Below the pieces are notes generated by a model. That model ran no database searches, was not told the DNA's origin, and saw nothing but the letters and a program-made list of their open reading frames with translations. Positions 18,288-58,098 of a DNA stretch of 64,000 nucleotides are shown piece by piece. The position numbers and the translations under genes are program-made. The number at the start of each line of letters is the position of its first letter. Position 1 is the stretch's first letter. This DNA comes from Candidatus Woesebacteria bacterium (GTDB lineage Bacteria > Patescibacteriota > Saccharimonadia > Saccharimonadales > EFPC-124), in NCBI GenBank assembly GCA_050115675.1, contig JASFQB010000001.1:1352-65351 (forward strand), given 5' to 3'.

Positions 18288-18323
18288 AAGAAAGAAGTTC
18301 ACATATATGTGAACTTCTTTCTT
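18288..18323 (-). terminator. 36-nt perfect palindrome / terminator directly 3' of the tRNA
   Basis: The sequence aagaaagaagttcacatat|atgtgaacttctttctt. Confidence 0.7.
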
Positions 18324-22165: not shown

Positions 22166-22194
22166 TTGACAAAATAATGTCACTTAGGTATTAT
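22166..22194 (+). promoter_or_regulatory. Sigma70-like promoter TTGACA-17-TATTAT upstream of tRNA-fMet
   Basis: Consensus -35 with a 17-nt spacer, 35 nt before the tRNA 5' end. Confidence 0.5.
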
Positions 22195-22228: not shown

Positions 22229-22305
22229 CGCGGGGTAGAGCAGTCTGGCAGCTCGCTTGGCTCATAACCAAGAGGTCGTAGGTTCAAATCCTACCCCCGC
22301 TACCA
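22229..22305 (+). tRNA. Initiator-type tRNA-fMet (anticodon CAT), CCA encoded
   Basis: 5' CGCGGGG and 3' CCCCGCT-A-CCA give an unpaired position 1-72 (C1xU72), the bacterial initiator hallmark. The anticodon loop is CTCATAA and the T arm is GTAGG-TTCAAAT-CCTAC. Confidence 0.9.
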
Positions 22306-22340
22306 AGAAAAGACGATCACATCTGTGGTCGTTTTTTCTT
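22281..22340 (+). repeat. Direct repeat copy 1: last 25 nt of tRNA-fMet (from the T-stem/T-loop on) plus 35 nt including its terminator
   Basis: 60/60 identical to 22456-22515. Confidence 0.95.
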
Positions 22341-22455
22341 TCTGGATAAGGGTTTGAACCTACGACCGTAGGCATTAACTGCCTGTGGCAGTTAATGTTT
22401 TCGTACTTAACGCTCGAGTGGAGGGCCTGCCCAAACGAGAGGAAAAGTGTTAAAG
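22341..22455. other. 115-bp insert between the tRNA-fMet 3'-end direct repeats
   Basis: It carries an inverted 18/19 copy of the tRNA variable/T-arm segment (22349-22367 versus 22274-22292). This is followed by a perfect 11-bp hairpin CATTAACTGCC-tgt-GGCAGTTAATG (22373-22397) and TTTT. No ORF is present. Confidence 0.85.
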
Positions 22456-22515
22456 GGTTCAAATCCTACCCCCGCTACCAAGAAAAGACGATCACATCTG
22501 TGGTCGTTTTTTCTT
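22456..22515 (+). repeat. Direct repeat copy 2 (orphan tRNA-fMet 3' fragment plus terminator)
   Basis: 60/60 identical to 22281-22340. The upstream sequence cannot complete a cloverleaf. Confidence 0.95.
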
Positions 22516-22520
22516 AAAAG

Positions 22521-22549
22521 TTGACAATTGTTATAAAAACAATTATAAT
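22521..22549 (+). promoter_or_regulatory. Perfect consensus sigma70 promoter TTGACA-17-TATAAT
   Basis: Exact hexamers with an exact 17-nt spacer, starting 6 nt after repeat copy 2. Confidence 0.7.
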
Positions 22550-29684: not shown

Positions 29685-29761
29685 GGCAGCGTAGCTCAGT
29701 CGGTTAGAGCGTAGGACTCATAAGCCTAAGGTCACTGGTTCAATCCCAGTCGCTGCTACCA
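29685..29761 (+). tRNA. tRNA-Met elongator-type (anticodon CAT), CCA encoded
   Basis: Acceptor GGCAGCG/CGCTGCT (G1-U72), anticodon stem TAGGA/GCCTA region with loop CTCATAA, and T arm ACTGG-TTCAATC-CCAGT. Confidence 0.9.
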
Positions 29762-29798: not shown

Positions 29799-29820
29799 CA
29801 AAAGTATTTTTACTAAAAGA

Positions 29821-29895
29821 GTGAACCAGCGATCTTAGGTATAAACTCCAGTGGAAACTTGTGTTTTCCGACCTTACGCCGAGACGGAGTTTATA
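29821..29895. other. Inverted tRNA T-arm-like fragment plus a long hairpin TATAAACTCC...GGAGTTTATA
   Basis: The reverse complement of 29821-29834 is gatcgctggttcac, compared with ggtcgctggttcaa in the tRNA at 18324-18399. A 10-bp stem pairs 29840-29849 with 29886-29895. Confidence 0.5.
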
Positions 29896-29921
29896 AGGAG
29901 GGCAGGGGTGGGATAGGCCTT

Positions 29922-54788: not shown

Positions 54789-54865
54789 GGGTCCATAGCT
54801 CAGCCGGTTAGAGCACCTGCCTTTTAAGCAGGGTGTCCTGGGTTCGAGTCCCAGTGGACCCTCCA
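54789..54865 (+). tRNA. tRNA-Lys (anticodon TTT), CCA encoded
   Basis: Acceptor GGGTCCA/TGGACCC, anticodon stem CCTGC/GCAGG with loop CTTTTAA, and T arm CTGGG-TTCGAGT-CCCAG. Confidence 0.92.
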
Positions 54866-54899
54866 CGAAAAATACCTCATCGTAAGATGGGGTGTTTTT
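54845..54899 (+). repeat. Direct repeat copy 1: last 21 nt of tRNA-Lys (from mid T-loop) plus 34 nt including its terminator
   Basis: 55/55 identical to 55030-55084. Confidence 0.95.
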
Positions 54900-55029
54900 T
54901 CGTGAGAAGTTTAATAATGTGTCTCGAACCCAGGTGTTCTGGGTGAGAACTGCCAGCGGCAGTTCGCAAGAGAATCAACTCTTGAAAACTGGTTTTCAAA
55001 GATGTTGTTCTGGGGCCGCGGAACGTGGC
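54900..55029. other. 130-bp insert between the tRNA-Lys 3'-end direct repeats
   Basis: It carries an inverted exact 12-nt copy of the tRNA-Lys T-arm (54923-54934 versus 54837-54848). It also has a hairpin CCCAG-gtgtt-CTGGG (54929-54943) and an 8-bp hairpin GAACTGCC-agc-GGCAGTTC (54947-54965). No ORF is present. Confidence 0.85.
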
Positions 55030-55084
55030 CGAGTCCCAGTGGACCCTCCACGAAAAATACCTCATCGTAAGATGGGGTGTTTTT
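55030..55084 (+). repeat. Direct repeat copy 2 (orphan tRNA-Lys 3' fragment plus terminator)
   Basis: 55/55 identical to 54845-54899. Confidence 0.95.
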
Positions 55085-55265
55085 ATGGAAAGCTTGGTGT
55101 GACTTGAGCTCGAATAGGGCTGTTGGTGGGCTCCTATTTGTCATTTGTGGCAAGCCTTGTATGGGTAATAAAACTTACTGTGTTAATATTAATGACAAGA
55201 GCATGCCTTAGCCGTTATCAATTAGGAAGTGCTCGATTTTATAAAGCATAAATAGGAGATGGTAT

Positions 55266-56655: not shown

Positions 56656-58098
56656 ATGTTTTTGTGGCGTTATTATAAGGTAAAACGTACAACTTTGATT
56701 AGCTTGGGCTGCTTGGCTTTTTTGGGTGGTTTAGCGTTGCCTAAGTTGCAAATAGTTTGTACAGATTACGCGTTGTTGATTTTTGGGTTAAGTTTGCTGC
56801 TGTGGTGCAAAAAGCGCTGGTGGCTAATTAGCGTACCTGCTGTGATGGTCGCGGGGTTGATGTTTGGCTTGTGGCGCGGAAGTGTTATGCAGGTTCAGAT
56901 AGATGACTACAAAGTTTATACCAACCAAAAAGTTGTAGTGCAAGGCGTTGTGCGAGAAGACCCATCCAGAGATAAATATCGTAATACTGTGCTAATGCTT
57001 GGAGATATAAAAATAAACGGCCAAAATTTGCCAGGAACGATGCGCATAACCACTGCCGGGATAGCCAGGCCGTTGCGTGGCGATAAGGTAGAGGCAGAAG
57101 GCAAATTACGAGACGGCTTTGCGAGTTACCAGGGTTCAATGTTTTTTGCAGAGGTGGTAGTTGTTCAAAAACAAGCAAATTGGATAGAGAGCTTGCGGCA
57201 TAATTTTAGCGCCAAAATTTTAAGTATTTTGCCCGAACCTCAGGCAAGTTTGGCTTTGGGGTTCTTGCTTGGGCTAAAATCACAGTTGCCAGAGGATTTG
57301 AATGGCCAGTTACGATTGCTAGGTTTGACGCATATTGTAGTGGCTTCGGGCTATAATTTAACGATTTTAGTTAGGCTTAGTCGTCGTTTGTTTGCAAGGT
57401 TTTCTAAATATCAGGCAACAGCTGCCTCTGGGGCGATGATTGCGTTTTTTGTTTGCATTACTGGTTTTAGCGCCTCTATGTCACGTGCAGCGCTAGTAAC
57501 GGGACTGTCGATAGCTGCTTGGTATTATGGGCGCAAAATTCACCCTGTTGTTTTGCTGATGGTTTCGTCGGCCATTACTGCTGCGGTTAATCCAGTATTT
57601 TTGTGGGGAGATGCGGGTTGGTGGTTGTCGTTTTTGGCGTTTGCGGGTGTAATGTTGGGCGCACCTTTGTTGCAGGCTAGAATTTTTGGCAAAAAGCAGC
57701 CGCCGCTTTTAATTCAGGTAGCAATAGAAACAATTTGCGCGCAGCTTTTAACCCTGCCGTACATCTTATTTGTTTTTGGAAACCTGTCGATTATTTCTGT
57801 TTTTGCAAATGTTTTGGTTGTGCCGTTTATTCCTGTGGCGATGCTGTTTACATTTATTACAGGAGTCGCATCGTGGATTTTGCCAGGCGTTGCAGCAATA
57901 ATTGCCCAGCCGGCAATTTGGATTTTAACTTACATGACTAATGTCGCTGGGTTGCTGTCTAAAATCCCGTGGGCTTCGTTGAATGTAAGCGTTAATCTAA
58001 ATGGCATGCTGCTTTTGCTTGGGTGTGTTGGTTTTTGCGGTTTAATTTTGTATAAAAAACTAAAATTTGATTATTTGCAAGCAAGTGTGGTGGAATAG
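56656..58098 (+). CDS. comEC: ComEC/Rec2-family DNA internalisation channel (no metallo-beta-lactamase domain)
   Basis: Polytopic protein with an OB-like N-domain and the competence motif LGLTHIVVASGYNLTIL. Confidence 0.8.
   Translation: MFLWRYYKVKRTTLISLGCLAFLGGLALPKLQIVCTDYALLIFGLSLLLWCKKRWWLISVPAVMVAGLMFGLWRGSVMQVQIDDYKVYTNQKVVVQGVVREDPSRDKYRNTVLMLGDIKINGQNLPGTMRITTAGIARPLRGDKVEAEGKLRDGFASYQGSMFFAEVVVVQKQANWIESLRHNFSAKILSILPEPQASLALGFLLGLKSQLPEDLNGQLRLLGLTHIVVASGYNLTILVRLSRRLFARFSKYQATAASGAMIAFFVCITGFSASMSRAALVTGLSIAAWYYGRKIHPVVLLMVSSAITAAVNPVFLWGDAGWWLSFLAFAGVMLGAPLLQARIFGKKQPPLLIQVAIETICAQLLTLPYILFVFGNLSIISVFANVLVVPFIPVAMLFTFITGVASWILPGVAAIIAQPAIWILTYMTNVAGLLSKIPWASLNVSVNLNGMLLLLGCVGFCGLILYKKLKFDYLQASVVE

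Follow-up and report, generated by a model that had tools for sequence, protein, structure and literature searches.

Among the described systems, integrative elements that target tRNA genes (the T-loop sublocation class) share with the modules reported here a direct repeat that starts in the T-arm, an intact tRNA, stacking on the downstream side and presence/absence variation. However, the modules are only 115-190 bp long and have neither integrase nor cargo. They add an inverted T-arm copy and a conserved structured core, one core family is found at many tRNA species, and the repeat can pass through the terminator. REPIN/RAYT, MITE or PATE-type elements are likewise about 100 nt long, non-coding, hairpin-forming, multi-copy and persistent at orthologous sites, with a presumed dependence on a factor encoded elsewhere. 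In contrast to these, the arms of a module are copies of the neighbouring tRNA and not terminal repeats owned by the element, there is no short target duplication of fixed length, the modules occur solely at tRNA genes, and no cognate transposase is known. Integration through a folded single-strand hairpin is established for the CTX phage and for attC. In the CTX-phage attP(+) and the integron attC, as in the modules, two inverted target-like copies flank a loop of 60-100 nt and the hairpin mimics a double-stranded target. However, the target of the modules is the tRNA T-arm instead of dif or attI, no recombinase link is known, and the spacer is not conserved between copies. Compared with attC, the module arms read TTYGAAC / GTTCRAA, which is neither the R-box RYYYAAC / GTTRRRY nor dif-like, and the R-box triplet rules do not apply.

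Other systems are less close. The 178-bp repeats of the E. coli tyrT operon (compared together with rtT RNA) are also repeat units downstream of a tRNA gene that carry its 3' end, but there is no similarity in sequence or structure, no Rfam rtT match and no inverted arm at tyrT, and tyrT is one locus only while the modules form a genome-wide family. The same direct-inverted-direct order with junctions at hairpins is produced by tandem inversion duplications and quasipalindrome template switching, but these processes add no foreign conserved sequence, whereas the modules always have a homologous core. As opposed to a tRNA intron (group I, archaeal bulge-helix-bulge), one of the two main core types (type B, see below) lies in a partial spare copy with the intact tRNA adjacent, so that the functional gene is uninterrupted. 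For an IS110/IS1111 bridge or seek RNA a DEDD recombinase would be expected, whereas no ORF adjoins the modules at any locus. Since at least one defining feature fails for every family considered, the modules were filed under no known family. The closest functional analogy would be an integrative element for tRNA targets reduced to its attachment region; REPIN-type hairpin repeats are also similar.

No description of the family was found in Rfam, the literature or the sequence collections searched. Rfam 15, whose families include rtT, tRNA-like RNAs, group I/II introns, known ribozymes and transposon-associated guide RNAs, gave no credible match over the modules at gathering or permissive threshold (E <= 10), and only the tRNAs reached a gathering score. 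No phage or plasmid similarity beyond the tRNA itself was found in IMG/VR, INPHARED and PLSDB. A phage or plasmid origin was considered and rejected: the core patterns were absent in IMG/VR, and six matches to the palindrome only were in unrelated phage sequence, with the core missing beyond the palindrome. Full-text literature searches returned no description of such modules, the nearest topic being group I introns in tRNA anticodon loops of Patescibacteria.

The stretch analysed here (the window, 64 kb) is chromosomal DNA of a Patescibacteria MAG with a G+C content of about 43%. It is labelled Woesebacteria at NCBI, and its close homologues and motif matches are all Saccharimonadales or Saccharibacteria. 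The features of the initiator tRNA locus are as follows.

22166-22194, + strand: promoter-like site of the tRNA-fMet gene, TTGACA-17-TATTAT, 11/12 by promoter scoring
22229-22305, + strand: intact initiator-type tRNA-Met(CAT), CCA encoded (ARAGORN, Rfam)
22281-22340, + strand: direct repeat copy 1, tRNA G52-A76 plus 35 nt of trailer and terminator to the T-tract
22306-22345, + strand: proximal terminator hairpin of tRNA-fMet, with a 3' strand extension (TCTGG) pairing with the CCA end of the tRNA
22349-22367, + strand: inverted T-arm copy (I arm), antisense, 18/19 against 22274-22292
22368-22455, + strand: type A core, consisting of GTAGGC, P1, GUUUUC and a second domain
22456-22515, + strand: direct repeat copy 2 (D arm), T-loop to CCA plus a terminator copy to the T-tract, 60/60 against 22281-22340
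22521-22549, + strand: consensus promoter TTGACA-17-TATAAT, 12/12, serving the downstream gene and lying outside the module

The tRNA was assigned as an initiator from hallmarks read in its sequence, the A11:U24 pair and the C1xU72 mismatch. The mismatch is C1xU72 instead of C1xA72, and the anticodon stem is closed by only two G-C pairs, not three. The I arm consists of the variable loop, the 5' strand of the T-stem, the T-loop and 3 nt of the T-stem 3' strand. In the core, P1 pairs 22370-22383 with 22387-22400 and contains a perfect 11-bp hairpin (22373-22383 / 22387-22397). The second domain (about 22401-22450) has an inner hairpin GGGC/GCCC and a flanking internal loop GAGUGGA / AAACGA. A 13-bp helix closing the core is possible between 22349-22361 and 22455-22467. 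For the gene downstream (ORF end 23018) we place the start at ATG 22587.

A sequence-only reading of this locus had already reported the perfect 60-bp duplication of the tRNA 3' end and terminator, the inverted T-arm copy, the 11-bp hairpin and the downstream promoter, and all four were recovered in the present analysis. Its statement that the insert has no ORF holds in substance but not to the letter: a formal 66-aa ORF with a TTG start overlaps the insert at 22262-22462 on the minus strand, which runs antisense through the tRNA and is not credible. The hairpin followed by TTTT, which could be taken for a terminator, was rejected as such, as it corresponds to helix P1 plus the conserved GUUUUCC of the core, and other members have GGAAUCC or GUAGUCC at that place.

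Long A-tract/T-tract palindromes make up the terminators at 22306-22345 (fMet), 54866-54904 (Lys) and 18288-18323 in the window, at 9409-9450 in L083 and at about 13040-13087 in L085. The 3' strand of tRNA terminators in these genomes usually extends to pair with the CCA/acceptor end, also at the element-free tRNA-Lys genes of L083 and L085, while the terminator palindrome of the element-free tRNA-Met 18324 is without such an extension.

The sequence-only reading had proposed to look for the hairpin AACTGCC-N3-GGCAGTT beside tRNA genes. The hairpin occurs exactly twice in the 64 kb, and its second occurrence is 83 nt after tRNA-Lys(UUU). A third, degenerate module was found after a tRNA-Met gene. 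Their features are listed below.

54789-54865, + strand: tRNA-Lys(UUU), host of the second module
54918-55084, + strand: complete type B module, its parts given in the next four lines
54918-54934, + strand: inverted T-arm, a copy of the Lys T-arm and not of the Met T-arm
54935-54945, + strand: sense variable loop, T-stem 5' strand and T54
54946-55029, + strand: type B core with P1, P2 and P3
55030-55084, + strand: 55-nt direct repeat, 55/55 against 54845-54899
29819-29900, + strand: decayed type A module after tRNA-Met(CAT) 29685-29761 (nhmmer E = 8e-5)

The direct repeat of tRNA-Lys begins in the T-loop and extends through the terminator. In the decayed module the inverted T-arm and variable region are 86% identical, P1 and the core are degenerate, and the direct repeat is gone. 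The fourth tRNA of the window, tRNA-Met 18324, has no module. Right after the tRNA-Lys module, GAGCTCGAATAGGGC at 55085-55130 looks like the beginning of a further type A module, older and decayed, with the anti-T-loop and TAGGGC. At 1.6 kb from the tRNA-Lys module is a gene for a ComEC-type competence protein (56656-58098), and natural transformation could carry modules from strain to strain.

A module is built of three parts: the local T-arm in inverted orientation, a conserved core, and the tRNA 3' segment from the T-arm onwards in direct orientation. In the window's genome this direct copy continues through the terminator to the T-tract. The intact tRNA is always kept next to it. In type A the tRNA and its terminator are followed, after about 10 nt, by the inverted T-arm, the core, and the direct T-arm to the 3' end, so that the core forms the apex of a hairpin whose stem is the T-arm sense against the T-arm antisense. 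The type A core consists of G(W)WAGGC, an 11-bp P1 with an invariant GCC-NNN-GGC top, GUUUUCC, and a second domain, in which an inner hairpin is flanked by internal loops rich in G.A. In type B the inverted T-arm is followed by the sense variable loop, the T-stem 5' strand and T54, then by a core of three helices, and then by the T-loop from T55 or C56 to CCA; the core is thus placed between T54 and T55 of a spare T-arm copy. Both structures are supported by covariation. In the type B core 98% of cells are paired and 22 pairs vary on both strands of the helix, where shuffles gave 8 +/- 1.9 and slid controls 1-3. For the type A core (P1 plus inner hairpin) the corresponding values are 96% and 9 pairs, against 4.3 +/- 1.3 in shuffles and 0-4 in slid controls. 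The P3 helix of type B holds an invariant G.U, and such invariant G.U pairs show which strand of type B is predicted to fold, namely the tRNA-sense strand. Further RNA-like features are a GCAA segment and internal loops with tandem G.A. Two strong folds that exclude each other were predicted, with energies of -48.6 kcal/mol (z -3.5) and -54.4 kcal/mol (z -9.9).

The family was then followed outside the window. The pattern GAACC-N14-20-AACTGCCNNNGGCAGTT was scanned over 185,579 species genomes and gave 57 matches, mostly scattered chance ones; all eight matches in Saccharibacteria MAGs adjoin a tRNA, just 3' of it (in one case 5'). A metagenome scan with the type A pattern gave 11 matches, eight of them just 3' of a tRNA. 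Further loci were obtained by fetching orthologous regions via flanking proteins. In total about 35 copies were gathered from Saccharibacteria-type genomes and metagenomes, and profile and covariance-model searches over about 0.28 Mb found copies solely at tRNA genes. The cores serve at least nine amino-acid identities, their hosts being fMet, two other CAT tRNAs, Lys, Leu, Arg, Tyr, Pro, Ala and Thr. Modules are some 120 nt long, within a range of about 100-190 bp, and are non-coding, hairpin-forming and multi-copy; direct repeats range from 8 to 61 nt across loci, and the inverted arm has a constant offset, +39 to +57 in most loci. The 60-bp repeat of the window is a real feature and part of a recurrent, lineage-wide family.

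The duplication could alternatively be ascribed to the assembly, a possibility also raised by the sequence-only reading, since repeats can be duplicated in short-read MAG assemblies. However, an independent Logan assembly of run SRR11713588 has a contig that covers 22486-54874 of the window and ends exactly 30 nt into the distal fMet repeat copy and 30 nt into the proximal tRNA-Lys copy, that is, inside the repeats as true repeats should break. We take the 30-nt breaks as the mark of a k=31 graph that branches where a repeat is real, an inference on how the assembler works. Because this contig ends inside both repeats and the junctions are confirmed, the repeat is not regarded as an artefact. 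The same design also recurs across NCBI, JGI, ENA and Logan assemblies, and the probability left for an artefact is virtually negligible. If the family is real, the tRNA-linked modules explain the recurrent contig breaks at tRNA genes in Saccharibacteria assemblies, and such breaks may bias the tRNA counts and contiguity of these MAGs. Contig breaks or N-gap scaffolding at tRNA-linked repeats were seen at the end of L084, at 4693-4842 of L063 and at the ends of L076 and L086.

At the initiator tRNA locus a type A module was present in all five genomes compared (the window, L058, L060, L063/L064 and L072), so that the layout recurs in 4/4 other genomes and no empty site was found. P1 shows compensatory changes, and the inverted arm follows the T-stem of its own genome (GTAGG, GCTGG and AGAGG in three genomes). 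The fMet cores of the window, L058 and L063 are 83-88% identical to each other, the tRNAs 87-94% and the terminators 64-70%. The same core subtype is also found beside tRNA-Pro in L050, where it is 82-87% identical. Other sites vary between relatives. In L083, whose RimK is 96% identical to that of the window, tRNA-Lys(UUU) has no module, while its promoter, tRNA and terminator are nearly identical to those of the window (about 97%, estimated from the alignment). The tRNA-Lys of L085 has no module either. Conversely, tRNA-Met 18324 is empty in the window and its orthologues in L058 and L063 are occupied. When the tRNA-Lys flanks were aligned to the empty site in search of an ancestral one, the shuffle p values were 0.18 for the proximal and 0.06 for the distal side. 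Copies also accumulate at single loci: there are two tandem copies in L035, a type B copy inside a type A copy in L058, tandem or nested copies in L054, and older remnants distal to the current copy in L064. Two tRNA-Leu genes on one contig (L066, L068) have units with about 95% identity that begin with the inverted arm and end with the 3' end of the acceptor. The two genes have unrelated terminators and spacers, so the conserved unit excludes the tRNA-proximal terminator. These comparisons show gain and loss between relatives, shifts of core subtypes between tRNA identities, and arms templated by the local tRNA.

The explanation that we favour, with about an even chance of being right, is that these are a previously undescribed family of non-autonomous structured insertion modules (MITE-/REPIN-like) which target tRNA T-arms in Saccharimonadia-type Patescibacteria. 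It accounts for the recurrence within the window, where the tRNA-Lys module has its own 55/55 repeat and inverted Lys T-arm around the same AACTGCC-N3-GGCAGTT and a decayed copy lies at tRNA-Met 29685. It also accounts for the recurrence beside tRNAs elsewhere with a conserved covarying structure and arms of local tRNA sequence, for empty and occupied sites, for tandem and nested copies, and for one core subtype at different tRNAs. Insertion, or later gene conversion, would copy the local stretch that begins at the T-loop and closes the transcription unit. Such copying at insertion, or refreshing by gene conversion, would be the reason for the long perfect repeats (60 and 55 nt), both of which end at the terminator T-tract. 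Spread may occur via the universally conserved T-loop, used as homology or microhomology on folded single strands, and the nearly invariant GCC-NNN-GGC top of P1 is probably the binding site of a protein whose gene lies elsewhere. Mobility is read only from the distribution of copies, however, since neither a transposase, a recombinase nor an autonomous copy was found. Furthermore, the fMet locus is occupied in 5/5 genomes with a core identity near that of the tRNA, which a selected function fits equally well. The near-identical tRNA-Leu units could stem from gene conversion and not transposition, and the empty tRNA-Lys sites could be precise deletions via the 55-nt repeat. With neither a fixed-length target duplication nor element-owned terminal repeats, the MITE analogy is a loose one. 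If the family is real, a large share of tRNA genes in the abundant and poorly understood Saccharibacteria (Patescibacteria) bear a structured module that copies the T-arm in both directions. It would then be either a new strategy by which DNA without genes persists and spreads via the most conserved sequence of the cell, or a new class of tRNA-linked RNA.

The latter possibility, a functional tRNA-trailer RNA that is transcribed with or after the tRNA, with a protein-binding or catalytic core and only rare and secondary spread, is doubtful in our view, though it is the main rival. The sequence-only reading had mentioned an undescribed tRNA-linked RNA module as its alternative, and the recurrence at the orthologous locus supports that part of it. 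Full occupancy of the fMet locus with compensatory changes, a core identity near that of the tRNA and above that of the terminators, the RNA-like features, the two exclusive folds and the retention of modules in very small genomes all speak for a functional RNA; the inverted arm could pair with the T-arm of the tRNA itself or with the distal copy. However, there is no promoter between the strong proximal terminator and the module, and decayed, truncated, nested and tandem copies are common. Intact-looking cores are also found antisense within tRNA leaders, the tRNA-Lys copy is missing from a close relative, and several unrelated core types occupy the same position. In a more speculative idea, drawn by analogy with bridge-type and other guide RNAs and considered improbable here, the tRNA-derived arms would be programmable guides around a conserved scaffold, by which a structured RNA or ssDNA might home to any tRNA T-loop, or act on that tRNA, with the help of a putative protein or of ribozyme activity. 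Of the T-arm, the left half is represented in antisense by the inverted arm and the right half in sense by the direct arm.

The remaining explanations derive the locus from known recombination or replication processes. If a T-arm mimic were folded into a hairpin attachment site of the CTX-phage attP(+) or integron attC type and recombined by a tyrosine recombinase of the host or a helper, the predicted order would be tRNA, new 3' end with terminator, inverted arm, loop (the core) and direct arm. The direct-inverted-direct order with the core at the apex is exactly this product, no integrase inside the element would be necessary, and tandem arrays fit successive integrations. But the spacer and proximal terminator should then be internal to the element, yet they are unrelated between the tRNA-Leu units of L066 and L068. 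The T-loop GTTCRAN is unlike the attC R box GTTRRRY, no link to Xer or IntI is known, and type B cores are inside the T-loop and not at the apex; such a site is distinctly unlikely. A classical tyrosine-integrase island scar or cis-mobilisable remnant, with attL/attR left after deletion of the interior, was one of the two proposals of the sequence-only reading and is very unlikely. A direct repeat with its start in the T-arm by which the 3' end of the tRNA is restored, and older copies lying distal in arrays, would fit such an element. However, no integrase, transposase or reverse transcriptase is encoded among the 30 proteins of the 64-kb window (Pfam), in agreement with the sequence-only reading. 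No integrase or cargo was found in any of the about 35 copies, and a scan of 12 kb downstream of 37 tRNAs for distant 3'-end repeats found no cargo-bearing or autonomous copy, all 37 having the repeat of the 3' end within 360 nt downstream. Homologous cores at at least nine tRNA identities are not expected of one integrase. The conserved, structured and covarying core, the inverted arm, and an interior of equal size and design at independent loci also contradict it, as does the conserved tRNA-Leu unit in which the tRNA-proximal terminator is left out. Conservation with compensatory changes in all relatives had been named beforehand as the outcome that would defeat a simple scar; since the fMet arrangement was so conserved in all relatives examined, that reading falls. 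What stands of the insertion idea is that the repeat acts like an insertion boundary and that a close relative is without the tRNA-Lys copy. The sequence-only reading is thus partly supported, in its RNA-module alternative and not in its integrase scar as stated. For annotation, such tRNA 3' fragments should not be taken as evidence of integrase islands. Finally, a replication error confined to the locus, in which snap-back or a tandem-inversion duplication takes place at the palindromes of terminator and T-arm and no element takes part, would give the T-arm as a direct-inverted-direct triplet and a repeat that stops where the palindromic terminator ends. The change from antisense to sense at tRNA-Lys also falls on a shared CAGG, as read from the sequence. 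But such an error leaves unexplained the homologous covarying core common to dozens of loci and genomes, and as a full account it is highly improbable; it is contradicted for the core and could apply to the origin of the arms.

Three further candidates were rejected. The TGG extension of the proximal terminator was considered as evidence of snap-back, but element-free tRNA-Lys loci have the same CCA-pairing extension. An RNA intermediate (retro-insertion) would fit a repeat that ends at the predicted transcript end, but variants duplicate the promoter upstream of the tRNA. In L054 the second element seemed to run on into an ORF, but this ORF is a small gene of no relation that cuts a truncated copy.

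Several variants of the design were also observed. L047 and L054 have mirror-image variants, in which the promoter and the 5' part of the tRNA are duplicated upstream of the intact gene. In L071 (911-1110, + strand) and L058 (381-445, + strand), type A cores are on the strand opposite to the tRNA and abut its 5' end; three of them are in tandem in L071. These cores are thus inside the tRNA leader in antisense orientation, and they carry the compensatory P1 variants AGTTGCC/GGCAACT and CACAGCC/GGCTGTG. Other core types with different sequences were found in the T-loop of a 3' tRNA fragment in L035 (4168-4340) and L047 (2400-2576, minus strand), where they follow tRNA-Thr(UGU) and tRNA-Lys(CUU) with the same GTGAC|TCGA-type junction. 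A D-loop analogue is present at two different tRNA-Arg genes of L069 (2986-3250 and 7567-7830, minus strand). At each, a 5' fragment of the tRNA that extends to the D-loop CAGCTGG comes first, then a block of about 110 nt shared by the two genes as homologous sequence, and then the intact tRNA.
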